DNA from: Verrucomicrobiota bacterium
GTDB lineage: Bacteria; Verrucomicrobiota; Verrucomicrobiia; Verrucomicrobiales; DEV007
Assembly (NCBI GenBank): GCA_024277195.1
Contig: JAJRVS010000007.1
Location: forward strand, 1 to 22,424
DNA length: 22,424 nt
Reading direction: 5' to 3'
Shown here: positions 3,596-22,424 of the stretch, piece by piece
How positions within the stretch are numbered: the first letter of the stretch is position 1
Layout: each line of letters opens with the position of its first letter
Notes under the pieces: generated by a model
Database searches by the model: none
What the model saw: only the letters and a program-made list of their open reading frames with translations
Told to the model about the DNA's origin: nothing
Translations under genes and position numbers: made by a program

Positions 3596-5923
3596 TTACT
3601 TATTCCTCATCTCCCGCGCCTTCTTCAAAAAGTCATCAACCGAAGTGGTTTTACTTTTAGGAGGAGCGACCGTAGGCCGTGGTCGGGAACTAGCTGTTTT
3701 GGTCGATTTCGGCTTACTTTTCGGTTTAGGCGTCGGAATCCTCGCCAACTTCACGCTACTGCTCGCGGTTTTATCCCCCACGACTTTCACCTTCGCCTCA
3801 GCCTCCCTATAATTCGCCAGCTTTAATTTCAAAGTATGATCCCCCACCGGTGCCTGTAGTTTCAACGGAGTTTTACCCAGGGAAAGCCCCCCCGGTCCGG
3901 TCACCTCCGCCCCCGACGGACTGCTCACAATTTCCATCGTCCCCTGCTCAAAGATCCCGCCCACATCCACTTTTCCATCCCGAACGACTTTATGGCTTTC
4001 CTTGGACAACAACCAGCCGTTCAAAGTCATCGTCACCTCATACTCTCCCGTCGGCAACTCGGCCACTCTCGCCGGTGTCACCCCCTTGCGTGTTGCAAAG
4101 GCCCCGTCGTATGACTCCACCTCCGATGACAGTCGAGCCAGCTCGTAAGCCACACCCTCCGGAGAAGAACCAATCATCAGTGTGCCACGACTGCGCTTCA
4201 ATGTGAGATCGACCTCGGAAAGTTCACCGTTCAACATCGAAACTTCCCGGGTCACCGGCTCAAAACCCGGAGCCTGCACCTCCAGCTGGTAGTTCCCTAA
4301 AGCCAGCCCTTCCATTCTCTGCGGACTGGTGCCACTACTCATTTCCACTCCTTCCTTCCCGGATCCCGCCCCGCCGATCAGCTTCATTGCGGCTCCCTCC
4401 GGTACCGTTTTGACATCTATCCGCCCCCGCAAGGCGTCAATCCGACCCAACTCCCTGAGAGCTTTCACGTCGACCGGCTCCAGCTTCAAAATATTCTCGT
4501 AGATGATCTTCTTCTTCAACTCGTCTGTCCCAGCCTCCATCACACTCTCATGCAGTGCCGTCACCTGTGCACTGAGCTGTGCTTTCTGCTTCGCTGACAT
4601 TTCAGATTTCAGCTTCGCCGCAGCCGTCGCTTTATTCCGGTCTTCCTCTTGTTGGGTCACCAGTAAAGCGGCCGCCTTTGCCTTGCCTGCTGCTTCAAGA
4701 TCAGCCGCTTGCTGGGCCTCGAACTTCACCAATGCGGCCTGCTCACGCTTCGGCGCTTCCACTCCGTACCACCAACCGGCAGCGCCACCGCCCACAAGGG
4801 TGATCACCGCAACCAGGGTCATTACTTTTTTTCCTGACCCACTTTTCTTTTTCCGTCGTTTCGCAGATTGTCCCGGCACCTCCCCACCCGACAGTTCCAG
4901 CCACAAGGCCTCCGCACTCTCCGGGCGCATCTCCGGGTCCTTCGCCAAACAGGACGCCACCACCATTTCCCACTCCTTAGGAATTTTCACAACTTCCACT
5001 CCCTCCGTTCTTAACTCTTTGCGCCGCACAGTGATACTCGGCACCTCGACCGTCTCGATCTGGTGCTGGATATTTCCCCGGTAAAACGGCGGTTTGCCCG
5101 TCAGCAATTCGTAAATGGTCGCACCCAATGCATAGATATCATCGGACACACTAGGCGGATAGCCTGAAGCCTGTTGCGGGCTCATATAGGGCAGCGTCCC
5201 GCTCACCTGCACACTACCCGATGTCAATCGGCTCATCGAATCGGTCAAACTGCCAGCAATGCCAAAGTCCAGCATCCGCAAGGTTCCGTCCATATCCGAC
5301 ATCAAATTGGCAGGTTTCAGATCACGATGCACCACCTTGCAGCTGTGCGCATATCCAAGAGCCTCACAGGACTGCTCAATCCAGTCGGTAATTTCCGCCA
5401 CCTCGAAAGTCTTGTTCGGTTTGCCCACACGCAGCTTGCTCAAAGTCTCGCCCTCGACGTATTCCATCACAATGGCCGCAGAGTGATCATCCTCTACCAG
5501 GTCATGGATACGCACGATATTCGAGTGAGTTAAATCCAGGCAGCGTTTGGTTTCTTCACGCAAGTCATCCAGGGCAGCATCATCCCCCTGCACCGCTTCA
5601 GGTAGAAATTTCAATGCTACTTCCCGGTTCAGTCGCTCGTCCCTTCCCAGCCACACCACTCCCATACCGCCACGACCAATTTGACGAATCAGCGAATATC
5701 GACCAAATGTTTTCAACCCCTCCCGCAATCCCTTCAACGTCACCCCGAAATCAAGATCATCTTCACTGACTTCTGCCTGAGCTTTCAACGAAACCGTTGT
5801 GAGATGTTTTGACGGCAAATCCACCTGCGGTTCCTCCGAAGGTTGCGGATGCCCGGAAACATCGCCGCGCAAAGTCGACCCGACACCGAGATCGTCTTCA
5901 CTATGGTTTGACTCGTCGCTCAT
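3596..5923 (-). CDS. Ser/Thr protein kinase with TM helix, coiled-coil region and C-terminal tandem PEGA domains plus a Lys/Pro-rich tail
   Basis: 775 aa. Kinase motifs are 'GRGGMGVVW', 'VALKFLPE', 'HRDLKPANLM', 'DFGIAG' and 'YMSPQQA'. A hydrophobic segment 'VMTLVAVITLVGGGAAGWWYG' follows. The C-terminus has PEGA-like repeats ('GSSPEGVAYEL', 'VSSPSGAEVTG') and a 'PKPKSKPKS' tail. Confidence 0.85.
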   Translation of the reverse strand: MSDESNHSEDDLGVGSTLRGDVSGHPQPSEEPQVDLPSKHLTTVSLKAQAEVSEDDLDFGVTLKGLREGLKTFGRYSLIRQIGRGGMGVVWLGRDERLNREVALKFLPEAVQGDDAALDDLREETKRCLDLTHSNIVRIHDLVEDDHSAAIVMEYVEGETLSKLRVGKPNKTFEVAEITDWIEQSCEALGYAHSCKVVHRDLKPANLMSDMDGTLRMLDFGIAGSLTDSMSRLTSGSVQVSGTLPYMSPQQASGYPPSVSDDIYALGATIYELLTGKPPFYRGNIQHQIETVEVPSITVRRKELRTEGVEVVKIPKEWEMVVASCLAKDPEMRPESAEALWLELSGGEVPGQSAKRRKKKSGSGKKVMTLVAVITLVGGGAAGWWYGVEAPKREQAALVKFEAQQAADLEAAGKAKAAALLVTQQEEDRNKATAAAKLKSEMSAKQKAQLSAQVTALHESVMEAGTDELKKKIIYENILKLEPVDVKALRELGRIDALRGRIDVKTVPEGAAMKLIGGAGSGKEGVEMSSGTSPQRMEGLALGNYQLEVQAPGFEPVTREVSMLNGELSEVDLTLKRSRGTLMIGSSPEGVAYELARLSSEVESYDGAFATRKGVTPARVAELPTGEYEVTMTLNGWLLSKESHKVVRDGKVDVGGIFEQGTMEIVSSPSGAEVTGPGGLSLGKTPLKLQAPVGDHTLKLKLANYREAEAKVKVVGDKTASSSVKLARIPTPKPKSKPKSTKTASSRPRPTVAPPKSKTTSVDDFLKKAREMRNK

Positions 5924-6025: not shown

Positions 6026-7822
6026 TCATTCAACAAGCTTGCCCTCTAACGCTTGAATCAGAAAACCATCCCCAGTCTTCACCACCACCATTGAAGCCTC
6101 CAGCTCCAGAGAACTTTTTAGCCCGATAAGATTCCGATAAATTTTATTTAACGTCTCATCCGTATCCTGAAAATATTTTACCGCGCCCGATCCGCTACTC
6201 TCGCCATCATACCCATGGTTATTATAACACTCCAAATTAGCATTCAAGATTATCTGATTGAGATTGAGCCCCCCAGACATTTCATTCGTGGGTAGATTCC
6301 CCAAAACCCGCCGGATCTCCCACTCAATATGCGGTTTGATATATTGCCTTTGAACCCCTGCCCCGGATCCTCCCGACATCAACGTCCCAGCCCCACCCAA
6401 ATAAAGATCCTCAAGCATGCCACTGAGGATATTCGCCTTACCAGGGTAGTTTTCCTCATTCAAGCGCTGTTGATACCGGGTGTAGAAATCAACTTCATAC
6501 TCAATAACAACTCTATAATGAGGCTTCTCATTACCCCATTCAAATTTCCCAGTTCCATCCGGACTATTCCTCGGGGGGAAAAGAAAGCCCTTGTCATCAG
6601 CAATACCCGAAGCCAGCCAAACCTTTGCCAGATGGCGATAATAATCTGCAACCTTCGACGGTCTCTCTGCGGCCTCAACAATAATTCGAAAGCCAAGAAA
6701 GTCCCGGCGATCCGAGGGAATCAGGTAGCGACGACGCGATGAGCGAACGGTTAGGGTGTCATCATTGAGCCAAGCTCCTCCGCGAAACACACGGTATTGC
6801 CTCCCACCACCATCATCGTATCCACCTTTGCTGAGAACCGCCCGCACATCGTCGTCGTTCATTTCATCTCGATACCAGTCGTCACACCACTCCCACACGT
6901 TGCCGCCCAAATCATAGAAGCCGGAGGGATTCATCTTATAACCTCCCACTCGAGCTGTGCGCACTGCTCCATCGTCGTAATTCCATCCCTTCCCTGGAGT
7001 TCCTTCCCAACATTCGGAGCCAGCATAGTTTCCCGATCCTCTTGGTGCTGGCCACTCATTTCTCCAGGGATACACCCCACTCGATGCCACCGCGGCACCC
7101 CACTCGCTGTCCCTGGGTAAGTGATAACCAAAACCGGGGTTCTGCTGCGTCAGCCAATTGCAAAAGGCCTGCGCTTCGTTCCAGCTCACACACACCACCG
7201 GATGATCCTCGCTCTGCTTGAATCCAGGATTTTCCCACGAAGCTCCCTTTTCCAATTTCCATTTCTTCAAATTGGAACCACCACTCTTCACATACTTCAC
7301 CACCTCTGCCCCACCTTGCTGCACATAGCCGCTCGCCTCGGCATAAGCCCGAAAATCCCGCACCCGTGTCTCATGACGGCACATCAATACACCAGCTTTT
7401 CCCGGCACTGGTATGAACTCCATACCCAGCGAATTAATAAAAGGGCCCTCCTTCGTCGCCGCCTCCAAACGCTCGACTGCCAGCTCTTGCTGCGATTTTG
7501 GTAACACCGGTGTTAGTTTCGGCGGCGTTACCTTCGATGACATGGATTTTGGCGGCGTTGGTTTCATCACCACCCGCACCGCTGCATTGCTCCCCGGTTT
7601 CAACATCACTCTATGCACCATCCTCTCATACCCCGCCAGACTCAGCTCCCACTTCATCTCCCCGGGCTGCAATTCTTTCAACCCGTTCAGCGGTGTCACT
7701 CCCAGCACTTTTCCGCTTCCGATTTCCCTCACCTCCGCCCCCACCGGATCGCTCAACACCTCCACCTCAACCGGCTCAAAGACAAAGACCATTTCCTTCT
7801 CAACTCCGGCCGACAATGTCAC
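6026..7822 (-). CDS. PEGA + non-catalytic FGE-sulfatase (SUMF1/C-type-lectin fold) domain protein with a ~230-aa C-terminal extension; GTG start; probably a decayed kinase-fusion paralog
   Basis: 598 aa. The PEGA segment is 'VFVFEPVEVEVLSDPVGAEVREIGSGKVLGVTPL'. The FGE domain runs 'MEFIPVPGKAGVLMCRHETRVRDF...HPVVCVSWNEAQAFCNWL...GGNVWEWC...RGGAWLND...GFRI'. The ORF begins with GTG immediately after an in-frame TAG (see pseudogene 7823-8067). Confidence 0.7.
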   Translation of the reverse strand: MTLSAGVEKEMVFVFEPVEVEVLSDPVGAEVREIGSGKVLGVTPLNGLKELQPGEMKWELSLAGYERMVHRVMLKPGSNAAVRVVMKPTPPKSMSSKVTPPKLTPVLPKSQQELAVERLEAATKEGPFINSLGMEFIPVPGKAGVLMCRHETRVRDFRAYAEASGYVQQGGAEVVKYVKSGGSNLKKWKLEKGASWENPGFKQSEDHPVVCVSWNEAQAFCNWLTQQNPGFGYHLPRDSEWGAAVASSGVYPWRNEWPAPRGSGNYAGSECWEGTPGKGWNYDDGAVRTARVGGYKMNPSGFYDLGGNVWEWCDDWYRDEMNDDDVRAVLSKGGYDDGGGRQYRVFRGGAWLNDDTLTVRSSRRRYLIPSDRRDFLGFRIIVEAAERPSKVADYYRHLAKVWLASGIADDKGFLFPPRNSPDGTGKFEWGNEKPHYRVVIEYEVDFYTRYQQRLNEENYPGKANILSGMLEDLYLGGAGTLMSGGSGAGVQRQYIKPHIEWEIRRVLGNLPTNEMSGGLNLNQIILNANLECYNNHGYDGESSGSGAVKYFQDTDETLNKIYRNLIGLKSSLELEASMVVVKTGDGFLIQALEGKLVE

Positions 7823-11712: not shown

Positions 11713-14529
11713 TCATTTTTTCAGACCTCCACAATGCAGCATCTTCCTTCCCAAATATGGATTAAACGGCTTCTCACTGCTGGTCTGCAACCAATCCCCG
11801 CCCCCACCCTTCACCAGCGGGCAATGCAGCACGTAATAACCTTCACGTCCCTGCGCAATCCCAATCACCTGTTTGCTCAGCATTTCAAATTCCTTGCGAA
11901 ACTCTTTGAGCGTTTTTGCAGTGGTTAGAGAGTCGAATTCACTACTCAATAAACGACGACCCTTACCTTCAAGTAATAATGCCGCGTGGCGTTTTGCACT
12001 TGCCAAGTCATCCTTGCTCAAAGCCGTCGCCATATTTATATAAGCTCGCAACATTTGATCGACCTCTGGGACCCCGTCCCTATTGACATATCCAGAGTCA
12101 TTAACGACGACACGGAAACCAAAATTGTCATCCCTCCGCGTTGCAATATTGCTCATCCTTGTCGATAAAAAATAATTATACTCTTCAGCATGCGCCCAGG
12201 ATCCACCACGCATTACGTACCCCTCAGGTTCCATGTGAACACATCCCTGTTTTTTGCAATATTCAAGCGCATAACTACCTTGCATCTCCTTACGAAACCA
12301 GTCTTCACACCACTCCGACACGTTGCCGCCCAGATCATAAAAACCGAAACGATTCACTCTATAACTACCCACCGAAGCTGTCCGTGGATGCCTATCGGCG
12401 TATCCTCCTTCAATTACAGACCAATTGGCTGAAGTAATATTAACCTCTTTACCTTTAAAGTTGCCCTCATCTCCCCTGCTCGGCGGCCATTCATTCCCCC
12501 ATGGATATTTATCAATAGACCCCACCGCAGCACTCCACTCCCCATCACTCGGCAGACGATAGGTATAACCGGGATTCTGCTGCGTCAGCCACTTGCAAAA
12601 TGCTTGTGCTTCATTCCAGCTCACGCACACCACTGGGTGATCCTCGCCCTGCTCAAATCCCGGCCTCTCCCACGAGGCATCCTTGTCCAGCTCCCAAGGC
12701 GTTAAATATTCTCCTTTTTCATTCTTCTTCACTTTCAACACATACGCCCCGCCGCTCTGCACATAATCCGTCGCCTCCACATACGCCCGGAAATCCCGCA
12801 CCCTTGTCTCCGTCCGGCACATCAACACGCCCGGCTTCCCCGGCACCGGCACAAACTCCATCCCCAGTGAATTCATATAAGGGTTCTCCTTCGTCGCCAC
12901 GCCCAGACGCTCACTCGCCAGTTGCTTAGCGGTCTTCGGCAGTCGCTTCATCACCACTCTCACAGCCGCATTGTTTCCCGCTTTCAGCATCGCTCTGTAC
13001 TCGATCTTCTCATATCCCGCCAGACTCAGTTCCCACTTCATCTCGCCAGGCTGCATTCCTTGTAATCCCGTCAACGGTGTCACTCCCAGCACCTTGCCGT
13101 CCCCGACTTCCCTCACCTCCGCTCCCAGCGGTTCGCTCAATAGCTCCACTTCAACCGGCTCAAAAGTAAAAGTCACCCGCGCATTCTCCTCCCCTCCCTT
13201 CAGTTCCACCTCACGTTGTTGTGACGGCCAACTCTCATACTCCGCCACCACCAAATGATTGCCTGGCAACGCTTTATACCTCAACAAACCATCCCCGCCA
13301 GTCGTCCCGACCTCCACTCCGTCCACTCGAATTTTCGCTCCTCCGGGTTCAGTGCCGATTTCCAGCAGCACCGGCGTATTCATCAAGGCCACCTGCCTCG
13401 CCTCTGCTTTTGCCAACTCATCCGCTGCTCGCTTAGCCTCCAGATCCGCCAACGCCACCGCCGCTCGTTTCGGTGCCTCCACTCCATACCACCACCCAGC
13501 CGCCACTCCTGCCGCCAGAACCATCACTGCAGCCATCGTCACCCACTTCTTTCCAGCAGCACTCTTTTCCACTGCCGGTTTCTGGCATTTTTTCACCAAC
13601 GCTTTTTTCTTTCGCCCCTGCACCGCGCCTCCAGACAACTCCGCCCACAACGCCGCCGCACTCTCCGGGCGCTCTTGCGGGTCTTTCGCTAGGCAGGACG
13701 CCACCGCATCTTCCCACAGCAGCGGAATCTTTCCTGCATCTTCAATATCCAACTGCTTGCGCCGCTCCTCCATGCTCGGCGCTTCCAGAGTCTCGATCTG
13801 ATGCTGCACATTGCCCCGGTAAAACGGTGGCCTACCCGTCAACAATTCATAAATTGTCGCTCCCAGCGCATAGACATCATCCGTCGCCGTCGGCGGGTAT
13901 CCCATCGCCTGCTGAGGACTCATATACACCAGCGTGCCACTGGTCGGCGCCCCGGCTGCGGTCAGACGGCTCATCGAATCGGTCAAACTGCCGGCGATTC
14001 CAAAGTCCAACACCCTTAGTTTTCCCTCACCGTCGATCATCAAGTTGGCAGGCTTCAGATCCCGGTGCACCACCTTACGCCCATGCGCGTATTCCAATCC
14101 CTCGCAAGCCTGCCCAATCCACTCGTTGATTTCCCCTACCTCGAACACTTCCTTGTCTTGTTTCAGACGCCTCGCTGTCAACGTATCCCCAGCGACATAC
14201 TCCATCGAAATCGCCGCTGAAGTCCCATCCTCCACCCAGTCGTAAATCCGCACAATGCTCGGATGCGTCAGATTCAGACATTGCATCGTCTCTTTTTTCA
14301 AATCGTTGATCGCTACCGGATCCCCCTGCACCACCTCCGGCAAGAACTTCAGTGCCACCTTGCGCCCCTCAAGCTTTTCATCCTGCCCCAACCACACCAC
14401 TCCCATGCCCCCACGACCCAGCTGGCGGATCAGCGAATAGCGCCCGAACCCCTTCCGCCCAGGCTGCAAACCTTTCAGCGTCGGACCAAAATCAAGGTCA
14501 TCTTCGTTCTGACTGGGATCAGTATTCAT
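11713..14529 (-). CDS. Ser/Thr kinase - TM - PEGA - non-catalytic FGE-sulfatase domain - C-terminal Cys/His-motif (DUF3347-like) domain fusion protein
   Basis: 938 aa. A full kinase motif set is present ('GRGGMGVVW', 'HRDLKPANLM', 'DFGIAG'). The TM helix is 'WVTMAAVMVLAAGVAAGWWYG'. PEGA is 'GTEPGGAKIRVDG' and 'SEPLGAEVREVGDGKV'. The FGE domain runs 'MEFVPVPGKPGVLMCRTETRVRDF...HPVVCVSWNEAQAFCKWL...RGGSW...FGFRVVV'. The C-terminus is 'YVLHCPLVKGGGGDWLQ...NPYLGRKMLHCGG'. Confidence 0.9.
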   Translation of the reverse strand: MNTDPSQNEDDLDFGPTLKGLQPGRKGFGRYSLIRQLGRGGMGVVWLGQDEKLEGRKVALKFLPEVVQGDPVAINDLKKETMQCLNLTHPSIVRIYDWVEDGTSAAISMEYVAGDTLTARRLKQDKEVFEVGEINEWIGQACEGLEYAHGRKVVHRDLKPANLMIDGEGKLRVLDFGIAGSLTDSMSRLTAAGAPTSGTLVYMSPQQAMGYPPTATDDVYALGATIYELLTGRPPFYRGNVQHQIETLEAPSMEERRKQLDIEDAGKIPLLWEDAVASCLAKDPQERPESAAALWAELSGGAVQGRKKKALVKKCQKPAVEKSAAGKKWVTMAAVMVLAAGVAAGWWYGVEAPKRAAVALADLEAKRAADELAKAEARQVALMNTPVLLEIGTEPGGAKIRVDGVEVGTTGGDGLLRYKALPGNHLVVAEYESWPSQQREVELKGGEENARVTFTFEPVEVELLSEPLGAEVREVGDGKVLGVTPLTGLQGMQPGEMKWELSLAGYEKIEYRAMLKAGNNAAVRVVMKRLPKTAKQLASERLGVATKENPYMNSLGMEFVPVPGKPGVLMCRTETRVRDFRAYVEATDYVQSGGAYVLKVKKNEKGEYLTPWELDKDASWERPGFEQGEDHPVVCVSWNEAQAFCKWLTQQNPGYTYRLPSDGEWSAAVGSIDKYPWGNEWPPSRGDEGNFKGKEVNITSANWSVIEGGYADRHPRTASVGSYRVNRFGFYDLGGNVSEWCEDWFRKEMQGSYALEYCKKQGCVHMEPEGYVMRGGSWAHAEEYNYFLSTRMSNIATRRDDNFGFRVVVNDSGYVNRDGVPEVDQMLRAYINMATALSKDDLASAKRHAALLLEGKGRRLLSSEFDSLTTAKTLKEFRKEFEMLSKQVIGIAQGREGYYVLHCPLVKGGGGDWLQTSSEKPFNPYLGRKMLHCGGLKK

Positions 14530-14684: not shown

Positions 14685-15044
14685 ATGAAATCTTCAGTAA
14701 CAGATATCATGCCGCAGCAACTGCGCCGCTCACTCAGCAAATTTGGCAGCGACCTGTCCATAGCGCGACGCAAACGACGCTTAAGCATCGCGATGATATG
14801 CGAACGGCTTGGCGTCTCCAAGTCCACCTGGCAACGAATGGAAAAAGGCGACCCTACGGTCTCCATGGGTGCCTATATTCAAGCGCTCTTTGTCCTAGGC
14901 TTTGGCACTCCGCTAACTGAATTGATTGACCAACGCAACGATGAGCAAGGTCTATTGCTGGAAATCGAGCATCTGCCAAAACGCATCACCCAGCCACGAC
15001 AAAAAAATCATCATGAAACGAAACATTCAGGTATTTTTAGCTGA
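14685..15044 (+). CDS. hipB: XRE-family HTH transcriptional regulator, HipB-like
   Basis: 119 aa. The segment 'RRKRRLSIAMICERLGVSKSTWQRMEKGD' is an HTH_XRE motif. The gene sits directly upstream of, and overlaps by 32 nt, a HipA-N-domain ORF. Confidence 0.7.
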   Translation: MKSSVTDIMPQQLRRSLSKFGSDLSIARRKRRLSIAMICERLGVSKSTWQRMEKGDPTVSMGAYIQALFVLGFGTPLTELIDQRNDEQGLLLEIEHLPKRITQPRQKNHHETKHSGIFS

Positions 15045-15327
15045 AGAAGACACCCCACTGGGAGAACTGCGCTACGACCATCAAGGGCAGCGGGAGAACG
15101 CAGCTTTTGCCTATTCCCATACCTGGCTCGAAAACGGCGAACGGTTTTCTGTCGACCCCGCCTTGCCATTGGTGAGTGGATTCCAATTCCACGCGCGACG
15201 AAGCCAAGGCACTCTATTTCATGGAGCTATCGCCGACACCGAGCCCGATGGTTGGGGACGAAAAGTAATTCTCCGAAACCACGCGAAACTCAGAAAAACA
15301 GCAAAAGCCCAAGGCGAAAAAAAATAA
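15013..15327 (+). CDS. hipS: HipS-like protein, equivalent to the HipA N-terminal subdomain
   Basis: 105 aa. 'MKRNIQVFLAEEDTPLGELRYDHQG...FSVDPALPL...DTEPDGWGR' matches the HipA N-terminal domain. It ends in TAA inside an A8 run, and the next gene starts at the very next codon in the same frame. Confidence 0.6.
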   Translation: MKRNIQVFLAEEDTPLGELRYDHQGQRENAAFAYSHTWLENGERFSVDPALPLVSGFQFHARRSQGTLFHGAIADTEPDGWGRKVILRNHAKLRKTAKAQGEKK

Positions 15328-16272
15328 GTGGACGTCTTGGGGGAACTCGACTTCCTATTGGCAGTGGATGATGAAAGCCGTATGGGAGCTTTACGTTTTT
15401 GCGACGAAGATGGAGTCTTCCAAGCCACACACGGTGAAGGCGAACGGCGCACTCCCCCGCTGATAGAGCTCCACCAGCTTTTTTGCTCTTCCCGCGCTAT
15501 TGAAACCAATACCGAGACTGCTCAGGATCTCGCTTATTTGCAAGGGCGAGGAACCTCCCTCGGGGGTCTGCGTCCAAAATGTTCGATCCGAGATGAAGAC
15601 GGTTCTCTTGCCATTGGAAAATTCCCAAGTGTGGCAGATGAACGCGCTGTGACCAAAGCAGAAGTTCTCACCCTTACCTTAGCAAAACAGGCAGGCATTC
15701 AAGCCGCCGACGCACGCATCGTGATGAGTGAGCAAATACCGATAGCAGTGATCAAGCGCTTTGATCGAACGCCGACCGGGTTCCGCATCCCCTACCTGTC
15801 CGCCGCCACACTTTTGGGAGCAGAACGCGATGACCCCAACGATCATTCCTACACTGAAATAGTTGATGCCCTACGCATCCACGGATACGACGTTCAAGCC
15901 GATATCGAAGAACTCTATCGCCGCATCGCTTTCTCCATACTGATCAACAATGTCGATGACCATCTACACAATCACGGTTTTTTGCATGTAAGGCATGGCC
16001 AATGGCGGCTAGCACCCGCCTTTGATCTAAACCCCTTTCCCCATCGCGCCCGCGAATTAAAAACCTGGATTTCAGAGGATACAGGACCCGAAAGTTCCCT
16101 TACAGCCTTACAGTCAGTAGCCCCCTATTTCCGTATCAAAAAATCCTTGAGCGATACGATCATAGCTCAAGTAACTTCAGCCGTGCAAAACTGGCGGCAA
16201 GTAGGAGCAAAACTGAAGATGAGCAAAACAGAACTCGATGCCTTCAGCGAAGCTTTCGAGGGAAACGCATAA
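15328..16272 (+). CDS. hipT: HipT-like Ser/Thr kinase toxin, equivalent to the HipA core kinase domain; GTG start
   Basis: 314 aa. It carries 'LGGLRPKCSI' (G-x-Q/R-x-K loop), 'NNVDDHLHNHGF' (the catalytic DDHLKN motif) and 'RLAPAFDLNP' (the HipA C-terminal signature). Confidence 0.7.
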   Translation: MDVLGELDFLLAVDDESRMGALRFCDEDGVFQATHGEGERRTPPLIELHQLFCSSRAIETNTETAQDLAYLQGRGTSLGGLRPKCSIRDEDGSLAIGKFPSVADERAVTKAEVLTLTLAKQAGIQAADARIVMSEQIPIAVIKRFDRTPTGFRIPYLSAATLLGAERDDPNDHSYTEIVDALRIHGYDVQADIEELYRRIAFSILINNVDDHLHNHGFLHVRHGQWRLAPAFDLNPFPHRARELKTWISEDTGPESSLTALQSVAPYFRIKKSLSDTIIAQVTSAVQNWRQVGAKLKMSKTELDAFSEAFEGNA

Positions 16273-16289
16273 GATCTACAATGCCCCCT

Positions 16290-16336
16290 CTTCCCTTCAT
16301 CATTCATCAGTTCCTTGTTCGATATTCAATATTCCC
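16290..16336 (+). repeat. ~48-bp repeat copy between the hipT 3' end and the amidase 3' end
   Basis: 'cttcccttcatcattcatcagttccttgttcgatattcaatattccc'. Confidence 0.8.
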
Positions 16337-17297: not shown

Positions 17298-19292
17298 TTA
17301 CTGTTTCACTTCATTTATCTCTACCACTTCAAAACTGGAACCACTTTCCCTAAGTTTATAGATCCCGCGCATTCTACCACTGTGGACGTGAGAACTTCCC
17401 GAGCTCACCCGGTAATCAAACAACGTCTCTGCGGTGAAATATCCTCCTCCGATATCGCGCACACTCGTCGATGATCCGGAAACAAGTGAATAACTACGGT
17501 TCGGGTATTTCTTGATGTAGGCCCGTCGCCCGTTTCTAATCGTACTCTTACCCACACTGCCTTCGTCATAAAAACGCTCTACCGTGGCGGCATAATACGG
17601 CAGCACTTCATCTATCTGGTTGCTCTCGCCCGCCGCAATGAAGTTAGTGATAAATCTACCGACCGCATTTGCCTTGTTCTGTAGTGTCTGTTGCTTCATT
17701 TCCTCCTGACGCATCGTGGCTTCCTTGGCTCGTTGGATCCCAGCCAAACGGTCAACTTCCTTCTGCCTGGCATCGGCCAACTCCTTCCGACGCCGATCCT
17801 CATCCATCTGTTTCTGACGATCGAGTTCAAGCTGCTTTGCGGCCTCATTTGCCCGTTTTAAATCAGCGGCGGCTTTTTCCATGCGCGCCGTTTTATCAGC
17901 CATATCCCGATCCGAAATCCGTCTCACCACCTGTGCCAAATCCTCCTTTGCCCTCACATTATCCGGATCAATTTTCAGTATCTGCTCGTAGACCGCCTTC
18001 TTCTTGTAATCATCAACCGCAGTCATTCCCACCACACTCTCATACAGCGCCTTCACCCTGTCCTCCCGCTCAGTCACTTGGCGGGCTTGCTCCTGTTCCA
18101 GCTCCGCTTGCGCCTTCGCCGCCTGCGCTTTTTTCTGATCTTCCTGCCATTGCGTCTTCGCTGCCGCCAGATCCACCGGCTCCGGCTCCGTTGACTCTGC
18201 TCCCGGCTTCGGAGCCGCCACCCCTAACCACCATCCCGCCACGGCTAAGACCATAACCGCAGCCACCGCCGCAAAGACCTTCTTTTGTTTCCCCCCCTCG
18301 ACAGCCTCGGTTCCCTGGCTTTTCCCCGTCGAGCGCCGCTTCCCGATCCCATCTCCCACTATCTTTTTTTCCCTCACAACCGGAGTGCTACCACCCGATA
18401 GTTCCGCCCACAGTGCCTCCGCGCTCTGCGGCCGATCCTCCGGATCCTTCGCCAGACAAGACGCCACCACTTCTTCCCACAACTGCGGAATTTTCCCCAC
18501 CCCTTCAATCCCCAATTCCTCACGCCGCTGCTCCATGCTCGGCGGCTCCATGGTTTCAATCTGGTGTTGCACATTGCCCCGGTAAAAGGGCGGTTTACTA
18601 GTCAGTAATTCATAGATCGTTGCTCCTAACGAATAAACATCATCCGTCCGGGTCGATGGGTAACCCATCGCCTGTTGTGGACTCATATAGACCAAAGTTC
18701 CACTCGTCATCGCCCCTCCCGAGGTCAGACGGCTCATCGAATCGGTCAGGCTGCCCGCTATGCCGAAGTCCAGTACCCGCAGCATCCCTTCCCCGTCGAT
18801 CATTAAATTCGCCGGCTTCAGATCCCGGTGCACCACCTTGCGCCCGTGCGCATAATCCAAACCCGCACAGGCCTGCTCGATCCAGTCGCCGATCTCTGCT
18901 ACCTCAAACACCTCGCTGCCTTTCGCCAAACGTCGAGCTGTCAGCGTTTCCCCATTGACATACTCCATCGAGATCGCCGCCGCCGCTCCGTCCTCCAGCC
19001 AGTCGTAAATCCGCACTATGTTCGGATGAGTCAACTCCAGACACTGCATCGTCTCCTTTTTTAAATCATTAATCGCCGCCTGATCCCCCTGCACCTGATC
19101 CGGTAGCCGCTTCAGCGCTACCTCGCGCCCGTCGAGCTTTTCATCCTGCCCCAGCCACACCTCCCCCATCCCACCGCGCCCCAACTGACGAATCAGCGAA
19201 TAGCGCCCGAATACCTTCAAACCATCCCGCCAGCCCCTGAGCGTAGGGCCTGAACCAAGGTCATCTTCGTTGCTGTGCTGGTTGGAATTCAT
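17298..19292 (-). CDS. Ser/Thr protein kinase with TM helix, long charged coiled-coil region and a C-terminal domain of unknown function
   Basis: 664 aa. The N-terminus 'MNSNQHSNEDDLGSGPTLRG' and the kinase motifs are shared with the other paralogs ('HRDLKPANLMID', 'DFGIAGSLTDSMSRLT'). The TM helix is 'VFAAVAAVMVLAVAGWWLG'. The C-terminus shows no FGE domain. Confidence 0.9.
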   Translation of the reverse strand: MNSNQHSNEDDLGSGPTLRGWRDGLKVFGRYSLIRQLGRGGMGEVWLGQDEKLDGREVALKRLPDQVQGDQAAINDLKKETMQCLELTHPNIVRIYDWLEDGAAAAISMEYVNGETLTARRLAKGSEVFEVAEIGDWIEQACAGLDYAHGRKVVHRDLKPANLMIDGEGMLRVLDFGIAGSLTDSMSRLTSGGAMTSGTLVYMSPQQAMGYPSTRTDDVYSLGATIYELLTSKPPFYRGNVQHQIETMEPPSMEQRREELGIEGVGKIPQLWEEVVASCLAKDPEDRPQSAEALWAELSGGSTPVVREKKIVGDGIGKRRSTGKSQGTEAVEGGKQKKVFAAVAAVMVLAVAGWWLGVAAPKPGAESTEPEPVDLAAAKTQWQEDQKKAQAAKAQAELEQEQARQVTEREDRVKALYESVVGMTAVDDYKKKAVYEQILKIDPDNVRAKEDLAQVVRRISDRDMADKTARMEKAAADLKRANEAAKQLELDRQKQMDEDRRRKELADARQKEVDRLAGIQRAKEATMRQEEMKQQTLQNKANAVGRFITNFIAAGESNQIDEVLPYYAATVERFYDEGSVGKSTIRNGRRAYIKKYPNRSYSLVSGSSTSVRDIGGGYFTAETLFDYRVSSGSSHVHSGRMRGIYKLRESGSSFEVVEINEVKQ

Positions 19293-19383
19293 ATAGAATA
19301 GGAGAAATCGTTGTTAATCTATCGAAAAACGGTAGCCAAGTAAACTGTCATTTTTTTACTACCAAACAGCCTTCAATCCAACT

Positions 19384-19668
19384 TTAAAAATTCCTTGCTC
19401 GATATTGGATATTCCCACCCCTTGCTCGATATTCGATATTCCCCACCTCCCCCACATGCCACAGCAGGCGAAAGGCATTGCCGGATGAAACCTTAAACTT
19501 CTTTCCCCATTGATCGACCACCACAGGATTGTCGGGCAGCAAACCCCACAAAAATGCGTGCACCGCTTTATGTCCATGTTCCTTACTAGCCATCGACATC
19601 GAGAGTGGAAACGACGCCTGGGATTCCCGCCACTCGCTAGTGTAGCGGAGCGTATCACCGCTATGTCA
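19384..19668 (-). pseudogene. Truncated hipA-like fragment (N-terminal domain only), cut off by the 48-bp repeat
   Basis: Translation gives 'DTLRYTSEWRESQASFPLSMSMASKEHGHKAVHAFLWGLLPDNPVVVDQWGKKFKVSSGNAFRLLWHVGE'. This resembles the HipA region 'F.Y...W......LSLSLPL........F..LLPEG...........DPFALL..IG'. An upstream stop is present, and the 3' end runs into repeat copies at 19391-19444. Confidence 0.4.
19391..19444 (+). repeat. Two adjacent copies of the heptamer-repeat core ('TTGCTCGATATTSGATATTCCC') of the ~48-bp repeat family
   Basis: Direct reading: 'ttccttgctcgatattggatattccc' and 'cttgctcgatattcgatattcccc'. Confidence 0.8.
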
Positions 19669-19778
19669 CTGATTAGCCATAGCCGCACTGAAGATGGACA
19701 TGTTGAACGAAGATTTCGCCGAATTCGCAAGACTTCTTGAAAAAGCCGAAGTGCGAATTATTACACCCCAAGGGGGTA

Positions 19779-19940
19779 GCCCTATGATAGCCCAGGACAT
19801 CGCCCTGGGTCTGGTCAACAGACCACCATTAGCCCTGAATGGGCGGCCCTAAAGCGTTGAGGATTAATGCCACCCATTCAGGGCTGAAAGATTGGAACTC
19901 AAATACCCAAGGTTTCACCCTGGGCTATCATAGAGTCAGC
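19779..19940. other. A ~150-nt nested-palindrome element: either a structured ncRNA or a MITE-like element
   Basis: A perfect 15-bp inverted repeat 'ctatgatagcccagg' (19782-19796) pairs with 'cctgggctatcatag' (19919-19933). It encloses a 6-bp hairpin 'ggtctg/cagacc' (19810-19824) and a perfect 13-bp inverted repeat 'agccctgaatggg' (19831-19843) with 'cccattcagggct' (19873-19885). A small UUCG-like hairpin 'gcccttcgggc' lies just 3'. No ORF explains the region. Confidence 0.35.
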
Positions 19941-20056
19941 CCTTCGGGCCTGTTAGCCTGACGCGTATGCGAGATCGACTCCCGTACTCCACGAACCACC
20001 CCCAACCCACGCAATGCCATTGCGTCCCACATCCCGCCATTCACACGTCACCTCCT

Positions 20057-20146
20057 CTTCACTTCATCATTCTTCGGTTCCTTGAGGTGCGCTAGATTGA
20101 ACGCCGAAGCTTTAGCGAAGGAGGTTGCTCGATATTGGATATTCCC
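20057..20146 (+). repeat. Long variant of the ~48-bp repeat, with a ~42-bp insert containing 'gcgaaggaggttg'
   Basis: 'cttcacttcatcattcttcggttcct...gccgaagctttagcgaaggaggttgctcgatattggatattccc'. The same insert class occurs in the copy at 21283-21356. Confidence 0.8.
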
Positions 20147-20237
20147 TTCGGGTAATTTCCTCCAGCTGTTTGACTCCGTCTATCTCCACTCCGTTACGGT
20201 TCGTCAGCGAACTGACTCGGCTCCCATTCCTATCTTT

Positions 20238-20284
20238 CTTCCCTTCATCATTCTTCGGTTACTTGTTCGATATTCGATATTCCC
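20238..20284 (+). repeat. ~48-bp repeat copy
   Basis: 'cttcccttcatcattcttcggttacttgttcgatattcgatattccc'. It overlaps the 3' end of the truncated four-helix-bundle ORF. Confidence 0.8.
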
Positions 20285-20640
20285 ACCCTCTTCCTCCACG
20301 CGCCCGCCATTCGGCCGACTTCATCGATCAAGCGGTTCACATGCAGGCATTGCCGCCCACTGATCCAGCTTTTGCTTTCCGCCAGTCGCCACAGAATGCG
20401 TAAAAGTTCCAGTATCAGGTTCAGCTCGTCGAGGTGACCTATGCGCTTAGCAGACTGTCTGGAAAAACGCGCCCGGGTGATTTCCTCCAGCGTAGTCAAG
20501 CACAGATTATCAATCTTTTGCCCGAGAGTAAAACGCTGGCCTTTCGGAAAGTCCGCTGTGCGGCCCAGCGACCATTCAGTCAGCTCGACCGCTACCGTGT
20601 GGATCGGCGGACGTGATGTTTTTATACCTTTGATACCTAT
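20248..20640 (-). pseudogene. Four-helix-bundle protein (PF05635 / 23S-IVS / Avd family) lacking a canonical start codon; its C-terminus is fused into the repeat
   Basis: Translation is '...AVELTEWSLGRTADFPKGQRFTLGQKIDNLCLTTLEEITRA...LDELNLILELLRILWRLAE...RLIDEVGRMAGAWRKRV'. It matches the family pattern 'FPK.ERY.L.SQ..RAA.SI..NIAEG ... ELETQL.IA ... EEIGKML'. Upstream there is no ATG/GTG before an in-frame TGA, so the only start is a TTG mid-protein. The last residues 'GISNIEQ' are encoded by the repeat. Confidence 0.45.
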
Positions 20641-20765
20641 TCACTCCCTATGAACGGCCACGCGGATTACCAATCGGCAATCTCACCAGTCAATTGTGGG
20701 GCAATCTTTTCCTCGATGCCTTGGATCACCTGATCACAGAAACAGAAGCTCATGGATGACAAGAA

Positions 20766-20826
20766 ATGAATATCGAATATCGAGCAAGGAGTGTTGAATG
20801 ATGAAGGAAATAGAATGAAGAAAGAG
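20766..20826 (-). repeat. Inverted copy of the ~48-bp repeat
   Basis: The plus strand reads 'gaatatcgaatatcgagcaaggagtgttgaatgatgaagg'. Its reverse complement is 'ccttcatcattcaacactccttgctcgatattcgatattc'. Confidence 0.7.
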
Positions 20827-20862
20827 TAACCAAATAAAGCTTAGTAAATAAGCTAGGTAACT

Positions 20863-21231
20863 TTATTGCTTTTTTAGGTTTTTCTGGGCGGTTGTGATAC
20901 TTACCACAAAAATGGAGATCAGTTCATTGTTTTCCTCGATGATCGAAGATAGTTTATCTGGAGCATCTACTAAAGGTTTGCGCTGGATAATGAGAAGCCA
21001 GACTAGTGTTTCTCTCAATTCTTTAAGAGCAATTTTCATTTTATGAATGAAGTCTTTCCGGGATTCGGCACTCTGCGCTTCCCCATAGTTCGGCGCAGGT
21101 GATGTACAAGATCGCACAAGTTGCCCCGCCACATGATTCCCCGCTCGCGAATCAGGCAATATCTCAACGACATTCAAAATCCTAACCGCAAATTCAATCA
21201 GCCGTTCCTGCAAGTCATAATCACGTTTCAT
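20863..21231 (-). CDS. Four-helix-bundle protein (PF05635/TIGR02436; the family that includes DGR Avd and 23S rRNA IVS proteins)
   Basis: 122 aa. The sequence 'LIEFAVRILNVVEILPDSRAGNHVAGQLVRSCTSPAPNYGEAQSAESRKDFIHKMKIALKELRETLVWLLI' fits the 'FPK..RY.L.SQL.RSA.SI.SNIAEG..R.S.KEFI.FL.IA.GSL.E' pattern. Confidence 0.75.
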   Translation of the reverse strand: MKRDYDLQERLIEFAVRILNVVEILPDSRAGNHVAGQLVRSCTSPAPNYGEAQSAESRKDFIHKMKIALKELRETLVWLLIIQRKPLVDAPDKLSSIIEENNELISIFVVSITTAQKNLKKQ

Positions 21232-21282
21232 CTTTACTACTCCCCCTCCAATTTTTCTTCATTCTTATATTTCTTCACTTCA

Positions 21283-21460
21283 TCATTCTTCGGTTCCTCT
21301 TGACCGCAGAAGCCTTGGCGAAGGAGGTTGTTCGATATTGGATATTCGATATTCCCTTCTTCTTCACTTCATCATTCTACTGTTCCTTGTTCGATATTCG
21401 ATATTCCCATCTTCTTCACTTCATCATTCTACTGTTCCTTGTTCGATATTCGATATTCCC
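21283..21460 (+). repeat. Tandem array of three ~48-53-bp repeat units: one long variant and two near-identical 53-bp units
   Basis: The units are at 21283-21356 (with the 'gcagaagccttggcgaaggaggttg' insert), 21362-21408 and 21414-21460. Both short units read 'cttcacttcatcattctactgttccttgttcgatattcgatattccc' with a 53-bp period. There are no unique spacers. The array ends 5 bp from the stop of the FGE-domain gene. Confidence 0.85.
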
Positions 21461-21464
21461 TACC

Positions 21465-22424
21465 CTAGCCGCCAACGCCAACCACCACCAAACGGAAGCC
21501 GTAGTAATCGTTTGGCTCCGCCGGAGTAGCGCCGTCGCGGTACGAGGAACGGAGAGCGATCTCCCTACCGCCGAACCAGGAACCACCACGCAACACGCGG
21601 TAACTAGTTCCTCCTTTATCATCAAACCCTAGCTTCTTCAAATCAGCCACCACATCACTGTCATTCAGCTCATCTCGATACCAATCCTCGCACCACTCCC
21701 ACACATTGCCGCCCAAATCATAAAACCCAAATCGATTCATCTTATATCCTCCCACTCGCGCTGTTCTCTCCGCTCCATCTTCGTAGTCATACGCAACACT
21801 CCATTCACTTTTGAAACTATTCATTACCTCCTTACCAAAATAATTGCCCGCCCCTTTCGGCGCCGGCCATTCATTTCCCCATGGATACTTGCCCAGCGAC
21901 CCCACTGCCGCACTCCACTCCCCATCACTCGGCAGACGATAGCTATATCCGGGATTCTGCTGCGTCATCCACTTACAAAAGGCCTGCGCTTCATCCCAAC
22001 TCACGCACACCACTGGATGATCCTCACTCTGCTCAAATCCTGGTTTCTCCCACGATGCTTCTTTATCCAATTCCCACCCCAGTGAATACTTCCCCTCATC
22101 GTTCTTTTTATCTTCCAACACATACGCCCCGCCACTCTGCACATAATCTGTAGCCTGCGCATACGCCCGAAAATCCCGCACCCGTGTCTCCGTCCGGCAC
22201 ATCAACACCCCCGGCTTCCCCGGCACTGGCACGAACTCCATCCCCAACGAATTCACATAGGGACTCTCCTTGCTCGCTGCTGCCAAGCTCTCCGCCTTCA
22301 GTTTCTTTTCCAATAGACCACCACCCGAGGTCACCCCCAGCGCCTCTCCATCAATCACAATTTTTGCCCCTCCAGGTTCACTGCCAATCTTCAAACTCGT
22401 CATCAGCGCCGACTCTGCCGCTGC
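21465..22424 (-). CDS. PEGA + non-catalytic FGE-sulfatase domain protein, 3' part; the ORF continues past the window edge and is probably another kinase-fusion paralog
   Basis: The FGE domain runs 'MEFVPVPGKPGVLMCRTETRVRDF...HPVVCVSWDEAQAFCKWM...GGNVWEWCEDWYRDE...RGGSWFGG...YYGFRLVVV' followed by a stop. The frame stays open upstream of the internal Met through 22424 ('AAAESALMTSLKIGSEPGGAKIVIDG'). This is collinear with the TM-proximal part of the 938-aa paralog. Confidence 0.85.
   Translation of the reverse strand, partial: AAAESALMTSLKIGSEPGGAKIVIDGEALGVTSGGGLLEKKLKAESLAAASKESPYVNSLGMEFVPVPGKPGVLMCRTETRVRDFRAYAQATDYVQSGGAYVLEDKKNDEGKYSLGWELDKEASWEKPGFEQSEDHPVVCVSWDEAQAFCKWMTQQNPGYSYRLPSDGEWSAAVGSLGKYPWGNEWPAPKGAGNYFGKEVMNSFKSEWSVAYDYEDGAERTARVGGYKMNRFGFYDLGGNVWEWCEDWYRDELNDSDVVADLKKLGFDDKGGTSYRVLRGGSWFGGREIALRSSYRDGATPAEPNDYYGFRLVVVGVGG

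Follow-up and report, generated by a model that had tools for sequence, protein, structure and literature searches.

Organisation of the locus

The window (the whole stretch of DNA that was analysed) is an entire contig of 22,424 bp. Its last part carries a gene with an FGE-sulfatase/C-type-lectin fold, two four-helix-bundle genes, a fragment of a reverse transcriptase (RT) gene and several arrays of heptamer repeats (Table 1). The features listed in a preliminary description of this DNA were all found where it had placed them, among them the FGE protein that ends in GFRLVVVGVGG and a stop codon, with its stop side at 21465.

Table 1. Positions of genes, gene fragments and repeats at the locus
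Feature	Position	Strand	Evidence
Two further solo heptamer arrays, edge of junk region	19368..19452	-	Family D1, motif matches
Nested palindromic element, ~190 nt	19763..19952	.	Inverted repeats I5 and I9; folding z = -6.6, -7.2
Solo arm, long variant with internal GC-rich spacer	20044..20144	-	Families D2/D4; 90% identical to 21300-21347
Solo heptamer-array arm overlapping avd end	20225..20293	-	Families D1/D2, motif matches
avd without start codon, 130-codon open frame	20248..20640	-	PF22296, NF033474
RT pseudogene fragment, 40 codons	20637..20756	+	tblastn/blastn against relatives' RTs
Cassette 3' arm, inverted copy of heptamer array	20757..20825	-	Inverted repeats I1-I15
Intact 122-aa four-helix-bundle gene, TIGR02436/PF05635 (23S-rRNA-IVS/S23p) type	20863..21231	-	Family models, PDB 2RLD
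5'-type cassette arm, three copies in tandem (GGGAATATCGAATATCGAACAAGGAAC...GAATGATGAAGTGAAGAAG)	21260..21464	-	Repeat families D1-D4
Former variable repeat and TAG stop	21465..21600	-	Ends GGCGGCTAG, as do relatives' variable repeats
Target gene of the former retroelement, 3' part (PEGA-like stretch and FGE-sulfatase/C-type-lectin fold)	21465..22424	-	PF03781 7e-40, domain reaches stop codon

Both four-helix-bundle genes had been assigned to the Avd family. This is true of the one described as truncated, whose product matches PF22296 (bAvd) with 69.7 bits (cut-off 40) and the DGR-Avd model NF033474 over positions 5-104 of 104 with 68.7 bits, which is below the cut-off of 80. PF05635 had been named for the open reading frame listed at 20248-20499 on the minus strand; the match is to PF22296 instead. 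The gene does lack a canonical start, but its frame is full-length: ATG, GTG and TTG are absent before codon 48, ACA stands at 20617-20619 where relatives carry ATG, and at its C-terminal end the frame continues into a repeat array. Because the frame is free of internal stop codons and frameshifts, and because the sister sequence P0001 (93% identical to the avd product) has an upstream ATG, some residual Avd expression or function is possible. Avd homologues are 57-93% identical overall, and those in intact Verrucomicrobia-type diversity-generating retroelements (DGRs) 57-83%; P0002 (82-83%) and P0003, P0005 and P0007 (62-74%, values that vary with the measure) all adjoin RVT_1 genes. A PDB search with the single Avd sequence gave no match, and an Avd profile returned 4DWL (BPP-1 Avd, first) and 8UB7 as weak top matches.

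The reported lack of an RT open reading frame in the window holds, yet a 40-codon RT fragment had been missed between the two four-helix-bundle genes. It corresponds approximately to RT residues 197-236 and stops one codon ahead of the AYLRYTDD of relatives, i.e., before YxDD. In tblastn it is 82-88% identical to the RTs of the related loci L009, L001, L004 and L011 (E 1e-14 to 1e-17), and in blastn 71-76% identical. Among the elements of a functional RT core, motif 4, [I/L]GxxxSQ, is retained as IGNLTSQ, while YxDD and both termini are missing. Searches of the window with relatives' proteins (tblastn), together with Pfam scans of all small open reading frames in 19300-20400, revealed no further RT remnant and no remnant of a second target. 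A 23-aa match of L009_T2 at 20861-20929 was rejected: it involves low-complexity sequence, runs antisense to the four-helix-bundle gene and is attributed to chance.

Intact relatives and the variable repeat

In the relatives, the DGR genes are laid out as target-RT-Avd-target. The flanking targets of L001, L004 and L011 are Peptidase_C14-FGE proteins; the genes flanking L009 and L010 are without recorded domains. The blast alignment of the L009 template repeat (TR) with its variable repeat (VR) contains 21 mismatches, and the TR base is an adenine at all 21. The L004 TR/VR pairs differ at 19 and 16 adenine sites and at none of 103 other sites, and those of L011 at 19 adenine and 0 other sites and at 11 adenine sites and 1 other. 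Judged by these repeats, the relatives are working DGRs. At our locus, target, RT fragment and avd follow one another in the same order and orientation as in these relatives. The matches to intact DGRs, whose E-values range from 1e-14 to 1e-107, show that the association with a DGR is not due to chance.

The target frame remains open at base 22424 and, since the window is the entire contig, the 5' part of the gene lies beyond the contig end. Its product shares 59-61% amino acid identity with T1 of L001 and L004, both of which carry an intact DGR. As expected of a functional DGR cassette, the VR is situated at the 3' end of a C-type-lectin/FGE target gene: the last ~135 nt can be aligned in register, column for column, to the VRs as well as the TRs of L004, L009 and L011, and the alignment takes in the GGCGGCTAG end. 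Because the cognate TR is missing, adenine bias was scored against heterologous TRs, which also give 20-34% mismatch at non-adenine sites; compared with the L004 TR, the VR mismatches at 21 of 32 TR-adenine sites versus 20 of 100 other sites (p = 4e-6). The control, VR1 of L001 against the same TR, yields 21/32 and 14/103, respectively. Adenines make up 13 of 132 positions in the target VR (true VRs have 9-22 and TRs 32), and the residue changes are located at Asn codons of the TR. The tail thus behaves as a genuine heterologous VR would.

The preliminary description left the choice between a DGR remnant and a coincidental association undecided. If it were a coincidence, two members of the four-helix-bundle superfamily would lie beside an ordinary FGE-domain sensor gene that had never belonged to a DGR. 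Such genes do exist here, since further kinase paralogues with an FGE domain, 62-65% identical to that of the target, occur in the window with no trace of a DGR next to them, and TIGR02436 genes are scattered everywhere. However, the IGNLTSQ-bearing fragment between the two genes, an Avd frame from a DGR-resident lineage with its cognate RT fragment adjacent, the gene arrangement of intact relatives and the VR-type pattern of adenine sites in the tail of an FGE gene homologous to DGR targets all speak for a remnant. The RT fragment, the relatives' gene order, the VR/TR alignment and the adenine-site comparison already refute the coincidence, to which we give next to no credence. We conclude, with a probability of roughly 0.85, that the locus is a decayed DGR. 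Still present on the contig are the first target with its frame intact, an internal stretch of 40 RT codons that lacks the catalytic YxDD, and an avd gene without start codon or upstream region.

As noted before, no template repeat matching the FGE 3' end is present: self-blast of 21465-21760 (word size 7) did not reveal the last 108 nt a second time in the window, and matches further upstream are ordinary paralogue matches. A TR/VR pair with differences confined to TR adenines, as the relatives possess, is likewise absent from the window. Since a TR, a second target and an intact RT are all absent from the 22.4-kb contig, the element cannot function in cis, and its VR has probably become frozen. 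The target may survive as a frozen variant of its predicted ligand-binding domain.

The VR could still be diversified in trans if another DGR of the same genome supplied a compatible TR and 3' recognition sequence, with only the local RT, TR and Avd being dead. The intact target frame and the GGCGGCTAG end common to relatives' VRs would allow for this, related DGRs serve two targets, additional C14-FGE paralogues lie close to L011, and remote DGR targets are known (PMC7517822). On the other hand, the TR is absent from the whole contig, and the available data contain no pointer to a second RT. Moreover, repeat arrays replace the sequence directly 3' of the target stop codon, so any downstream cis element is gone. 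We therefore consider diversification in trans unlikely, and a VR that is frozen the better description of this decayed DGR.

A four-helix-bundle cassette between inverted repeat arrays

The intact 122-aa four-helix-bundle protein is not an Avd but the product of an unrelated IVS-type cassette gene. It belongs to TIGR02436 (81.6 bits, cut-off 24) and PF05635 (51.4 bits, cut-off 33.8), matches PDB 2RLD with 1.2e-15 and has more than 7,900 close homologues. Comparison with the Avd profile gave no detectable similarity. The choice of model thus sorts four-helix-bundle genes next to FGE genes for annotation: PF22296 and NF033474 identify Avd, PF05635 and TIGR02436 the IVS type.

The gene sits in a low-GC cassette of ~500 bp between inverted arrays of GAATATC-like heptamers. 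Its GC content is 0.40-0.41, compared with 0.50-0.60 in the flanks, and the arms at 20757-20825 and 21260-21354 form inverted repeats that enclose the open reading frame. The 3' arm abuts the break of the RT fragment at 20756/20757, and the tandem 5'-type arms begin 3-8 nt past the target stop codon. Arm motifs were counted 10 and 7 times, against chance expectations of 0.02 and 0.21. GC content and flanking inverted arms mark the gene as an insertion and, judged by its sequence, the cassette is foreign to the locus.

Homologues of the cassette, 59-82% identical, are sited in unrelated loci that bear the same inverted arms, and both here and in L012 the cassette is found between protein-coding sequences. 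The arm arrangement lies above the 99th percentile of a shuffled null in 61 of 66 homologous metagenome loci, and heptamers in homologous loci are spaced by 7, 14 or 21 nt. L012 and L013 also show this arrangement. Inverted heptamer arrays are thus near-universal around TIGR02436 genes in the loci examined, which indicates a function or a mobility mechanism. A comparison of transitions in the arms that G:U pairing would tolerate in an RNA stem with those it would not gave 94 versus 77, which tells neither for nor against a stem.

Could the intact TIGR02436 protein instead be a working DGR partner, such as one that has taken over from Avd? Its fold is of the same class as that of Avd, its gene is sited on the same strand with the target on one side and avd on the other, and PF05635 was reported as the Pfam family most common near DGR RTs (PMC10053308). 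Yet no RT is present to assist, and the lack of similarity to the Avd profile and the signs of insertion described above argue against such a role, as do the unrelated neighbourhoods of its close homologues, where 279 kb around 80 of them contain no DGR part. We regard this as very improbable, and an intruding cassette as the appropriate reading.

Further arrays and RNA signals

Solo arms without a cassette gene lie at and beyond the avd end (Table 1). The structured element noted nearby is indeed present as a nested hairpin. It was rejected as an RNA element of the DGR because no DGR relative has a counterpart; its only partial match is L034 1016-1095, near another four-helix-bundle cassette. 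Rfam searches of the window at gathering thresholds and at E <= 1 revealed no family, rRNA included; one sub-threshold match, Acido-Lenti-1, reached 20 bits, the gathering score being 37. No tRNA genes were found, and promoter-like or terminator-like sites do not exceed the frequency seen in shuffled sequences.

Proposed history of decay

By analogy with the relatives, the ancestral RT and Avd would have copied TR RNA into cDNA with errors at adenines, and the cDNA would have overwritten the 3'-end VR of one or two targets with an FGE/C-type-lectin fold. The ancestral layout was probably target1(+), RT(-), Avd(+) and target2(-), with a TR beside target1 or between Avd and target2. RT codons 1-196 may have gone in a deletion of ~650 bp, together with the start of avd and the intergenic region from which the two genes diverged, so that the "truncation" of avd would be the loss of its start codon and promoter. 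The low-GC TIGR02436 cassette of ~0.5 kb presumably lies where the RT 3' part and, next to it, the TR used to be. Extra arrays would likewise stand in place of everything that once followed avd, among it target2 and the second TR position. Insertion of the cassette and array-array recombination are the most likely cause of the deletions, and either the insertion or the deletion may have come first. After these events the locus could presumably no longer diversify in cis.

We consider it possible, although less likely than not, that TIGR02436 cassettes represent small mobile or selfish elements of a large class that has yet to be described, related to the intervening sequences (IVS) of 23S rRNA but located outside rRNA genes, in which a pentameric Avd-like protein would recognise its own arrays or the arms would form an RNase III-processed stem, and that such an insertion, with array recombination, destroyed the DGR. 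If so, an Avd paralogue would have killed an Avd-dependent retroelement. The DGR remnant itself is ordinary biology, and the cassette is the more interesting by-product. TIGR02436 is a very abundant and still uncharacterised gene family, and the cassette may therefore matter more than the remnant. The latter nevertheless illustrates that comparison with intact relatives can prove a DGR remnant even where no RT open reading frame exists, and it is a clean example of the death of a cellular DGR, in which the internal RT fragment, start-less avd and frozen VR trace the path.

Comparison with known systems

DGRs whose FGE/C-type-lectin targets are joined to conflict or signalling domains include the prototype of Bordetella phage BPP-1, the STK-CLec and orthocaspase-CLec systems of cyanobacteria (PMC7517822), those of Thiohalocapsa and other multicellular bacteria (PMC10907252) and FGS-domain systems (PMC7159879). 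Our locus shares with them a bAvd-family Avd, a DGR-type RT fragment (IGNLTSQ), a target that terminates in the FGE/CLec fold with the VR at its extreme 3' end, and variable positions at template AAY (Asn) codons. In contrast to working systems of this kind, its RT is reduced to 40 codons without YxDD, TR and second target are missing, and avd has no start. It also differs from its closest intact relatives in the visible N-terminal context of the target, with a PEGA-like stretch where they have Peptidase_C14.

Degraded DGR cassettes, and kinase- and orthocaspase-CLec variable proteins with dispersed paralogues, have been described (PMC7517822), and the paralogous kinase-FGE genes near our locus resemble these cyanobacterial paralogues. 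Degraded or partial cassettes and orphan VR paralogues are exemplified by an RT-only remnant in Anabaena sp. 90 and by Nostoc all3226 with remnant TR-VR homology (PMC7517822). As in degraded cassettes, diversification parts have been lost here, the variable-protein gene has been kept, and mobile or repeated DNA is present at the site; the kept variable protein is in keeping with the view that the machinery is given up after fixation of a useful variant (PMC7517822). Unlike in the Anabaena and Nostoc remnants, the survivors are Avd, an internal RT fragment and the VR, and the disrupting DNA is a four-helix-bundle cassette with solo arms rather than an IS200/IS605 transposase.

The 122-aa gene alone is comparable to the IVS of 23S rRNA, which carry an S23p/PF05635 open reading frame in Leptospira, Coxiella burnetii and Xanthomonas (PMC4990558). 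Both have the same protein family, an element of ~0.4-0.6 kb with a GC content below that of the host, and an open reading frame within terminal inverted repeats with tandem heptamers just upstream. The cassette differs from the IVS in its location between protein-coding genes and not in helix 9, 25 or 45 of 23S rRNA, in its GAATATC-like heptamer (GACAGAT in the Coxiella IVS) and in having arrays on both sides as well as solo copies. RNase III processing, a feature of the IVS, is a candidate mechanism for the cassette.

Two four-helix-bundle genes of different families

The FGE-sulfatase-fold gene, the 122-aa gene and the short ORF of the preliminary description are all present where it placed them. 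The latter two had been described as PF05635 genes, one of them truncated. The 122-aa protein does match PF05635, scores 81.6 bits with TIGR02436 (cut-off 24) and matches PDB 2RLD; the short ORF belongs to a different family, bAvd. Read upstream, it becomes a frame open for 130 codons (20248–20640), which scores 69.7 bits with PF22296 bAvd (cut-off 40) and covers positions 5–104 of 104 of NF033474, the NCBI equivalog "DGR protein Avd", at 68.7 bits, below the strict cut-off of 80. Since the full model is matched over an open frame, avd cannot be called truncated. It has no canonical start codon, with ACA at the codon aligned with the relatives' ATG, and its C-terminus runs on into a repeat array (...AWRKRVG, then ISNIEQVTEE and the stop codon).

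Features of the region and of related cassettes
Feature	Position	Strand	Remark
HTH protein	14685-15044	+	HipBST-like layout
Small Couple_hipA/HipS-like ORF	14926-15327	+	HipBST-like layout
HipA_C kinase	15328-16272	+	HipBST-like layout
Solo unit copies	20225-20293, 20044-20144, 19368-19452, 16295-16334		
Second, shorter ORF	20248-20499	-	match to PF22296 bAvd
RT fragment	20637-20756	+	blastn and tblastn onto residues ~197-236 of all four relatives' RTs
Inverted copy of ~52-nt unit	20757-20825		after 122-aa gene
122-aa four-helix-bundle gene	20863-21231	-	PF05635, TIGR02436 match
Cassettes with inverted GAATATC-like heptamer arrays	window 20757-21464; L012 5889-6447; L013; L014-L093		~500 bp

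Intact relatives

Database homologues of the avd frame number nine. Genomic context was sought for five of them and was on record for four: P0002 (82–83% identity) and P0003, P0005 and P0007 (62–74%, depending on the measure). All four loci, one of them from a Verrucomicrobia MAG, have the same layout of first target (+), RVT_1 reverse transcriptase (RT, -), Avd (+) and second target (-). The targets in L001, L004 and L011 are Peptidase_C14-FGE proteins; the flanking genes of L009/L010 have no recorded domains. The variable repeat (VR) of L009 (1650–1755) differs from its template repeat (TR, 1977–2082) at 21 sites, and the TR base is A in all of them. L004 has two VRs, with 19 and 16 differences from the TR at adenines and none at the 103 remaining sites, and L011 shows the same pattern. 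The relatives are working DGRs.

The place and strand of the TR vary among these close DGRs: L009 has it on the plus strand beside target 1, whereas L004 (10529–10680) and L011 (6108–6249) have it on the minus strand, with Avd on one side and target 2 on the other. Avd and RT genes in these three DGRs are divergent, not co-oriented. The copy at the TR position of L001 (10531–10670), a locus otherwise intact, ends TR-like in GGCGGCAAG; it is not adenine-rich (15 A versus 32 in other TRs), has many non-A differences from VR1 and may represent a TR that is unusual or in decay.

The target gene carries a probable former variable repeat

The FGE gene ends at 21465 on the minus strand (...GFRLVVVGVGG, stop); since its frame has not closed by base 22424 and the window is the complete contig, the gene is cut by the contig end. 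The protein is 59–61% identical to the first targets of L001 and L004 and has the C-terminal ...GFR.V....GG in common with them. Its last ~135 nt (21465–21600) line up position by position with the VRs and TRs of the relatives, ending in GGCGGCTAG where TRs have GGCGGCAAG.

Because the cognate TR is missing, adenine bias was measured against heterologous TRs. Compared with the L004 TR, the window VR mismatches at 21 of 32 TR-adenine sites and 20 of 100 other sites (p = 4e-6). The controls gave 21/32 and 14/103 (L001 VR1) and 21/32 and 25/103 (L011 VR1), so that the tail behaves as genuine VRs of other loci do against a heterologous TR. Adenine accounts for 13 of 132 bases (9–22 in true VRs, 32 in TRs). 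The tail encodes LRGGSW-FGG-R-EI-A-LRSS-Y-R-DG-A-TP-AEP-ND-YY-GFR and the TR LRGGSW-NNN-S-EI-N-LRSS-N-R-NN-D-TP-TNR-ND-NN-GFR; it is mainly the template Asn codons that differ.

As first reported, the window holds no template repeat for the FGE 3' end: self-comparison found no second copy of the last 108 nt, upstream of which there are ordinary paralogue matches (67–73%) to two other FGE genes. This speaks against the main rival, namely that the VR is still diversified in trans by another DGR elsewhere in the genome, which we consider improbable.

Paralogues with Ser/Thr-kinase, PEGA and FGE domains are clustered at 3596–5923, 6026–7822, 11713–14529 and 17298–19292, all on the minus strand. 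In 6026–7822 and 11713–14529, the FGE domains are internal, with extra domains C-terminal to them, and keep the VR scaffold RGG[SA]W...GFR with other residues at the DGR-varied positions; they may be variable-protein copies that became frozen long ago.

A reverse transcriptase fragment and a probable deletion

The RT fragment is 82–88% identical to the four RTs at the protein level (tblastn) and, just as the RT and avd do in the relatives, it and avd occupy opposite strands. It contains IGNLTSQ, which fits the [I/L]GxxxSQ motif typical of DGR RTs. Similarity ends at 20756, one codon short of the catalytic motif AYLRYTDD of the relatives, and TGA is the codon that follows in the window. The fragment and the avd frame are only ~20 nt apart, whereas the equivalent L009 interval of ~650 bp comprises RT codons 1–196 and the divergent intergenic region. 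This spacing and the ACA in place of ATG point to a single deletion that cost the RT its 5' half and avd, in effect, its start, together with the upstream region that the two shared. An intact RT is absent from the whole contig, and tblastn with the relatives' second targets detected no second-target remnant downstream of avd.

The 122-aa gene lies in a repeat-flanked cassette

Between the target stop codon and the RT fragment, where L009 has its TR and the RT 3' part, there are three tandem copies of a ~52-nt unit (minus strand, GGGAATATCGAATATCGAACAAGGAAC...GAATGATGAAGTGAAGAAG), then the 122-aa gene and one inverted copy. The GC content is 0.40–0.41 over the gene and 0.50–0.60 in the flanks, and there are 10 and 7 occurrences of the core motifs versus 0.02 and 0.21 expected by chance. 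The gene is thus foreign and repeat-flanked.

Close homologues of the 122-aa protein number more than 7,900 (67–100% identity among the top 120), most on ~1-kb contigs, typical of multicopy DNA. One homologue, at 82% identity, is flanked by sulfatase and MFS genes and has the same inverted arms (5', GGGAATATTGAATGTTGAACAAGGAA; 3', reverse complement of GGGAATAATTAATATTGAACAAGGAA). Among 66 metagenome loci with both flanks available (59–75% identity), flanking inverted repeats exceed the 99th percentile of a shuffled null in 61. The arms are GAAYRTC-like heptamers spaced by 7, 14 or 21 nt, sense upstream and antisense downstream, with a median arm-to-arm span of 497 bp; they match within a locus and differ between loci. 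An RNA-level pairing test of the arms gave G:U-compatible transitions of 94 vs 77. No RT, Avd or target homologue was found in 279 kb around 80 cassette-type genes. Given inverted arms in unrelated loci and 279 kb free of DGR parts, the 122-aa gene does not belong to the DGR and is an intruding cassette.

Solo arm copies have a single orientation and are intergenic or extend across the ends of genes; one, far from the DGR remnant, has the HipA_C gene on one side and the amidase gene on the other. A long arm variant (20097–20144, 21300–21347) has a GCGAAGGAGG spacer. A ~190-nt nested palindrome (19763–19952) has a fold much more stable than that of shuffled sequences, with z = -6.6 and -7.2 for the two strands, and has no match in Rfam; L034 has an 80-nt relative (1016–1095), placed ~230 nt upstream of a further four-helix-bundle cassette, and the palindrome may be a second small repeated element. 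Elsewhere, 14685–16272 (+) has a HipBST-like three-gene toxin-antitoxin layout, and a separate HipA N-terminal fragment (19384–19599, -) lies in the junk region adjoining the remnant.

Discussion

We consider it about 85% probable that the locus is a decayed DGR. For the VR-bearing target, RT fragment and avd, homology, location and break points are direct observations, as is a contig devoid of TR, intact RT and second target. With no catalytic RT and no TR, the locus is not a functional DGR; it does qualify as a DGR remnant. The degenerate DGR initially proposed therefore holds as a remnant, through the RT fragment, Avd homology and VR-like tail; the 122-aa gene drops out of it as an Avd-type component. 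The ancestor would have been a working DGR of the relatives' type, its losses most likely came through cassette insertion and array-to-array recombination, and the VR would now be frozen. The sister sequences P0001 (Avd, 93%) and P0011 (four-helix bundle, 91%) are each reported on a 7,809-bp NCBI contig, and this equal length, our one basis for the link, suggests that a related genome shares the disrupted state.

Diversification by DGRs of FGE/CLec domains that are fused to kinases, caspase-like peptidases or NTPases is well documented (PMC7517822, PMC10907252, PMC7159879), and so are degraded DGR cassettes and orphan VR-bearing paralogues (PMC7517822), and the remnant is an ordinary one of this kind. 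The cassette, a candidate mobile element, is the testable lead beside it. Inverted heptamer arrays around non-rRNA TIGR02436 genes are not described in the literature searched, nor do we know of such a description. In 23S rRNA, intervening sequences that encode S23p are low in GC, end in inverted repeats and carry heptamer repeats ahead of the ORF (PMC4990558); the cassette resembles them in these features but does not lie in rRNA.
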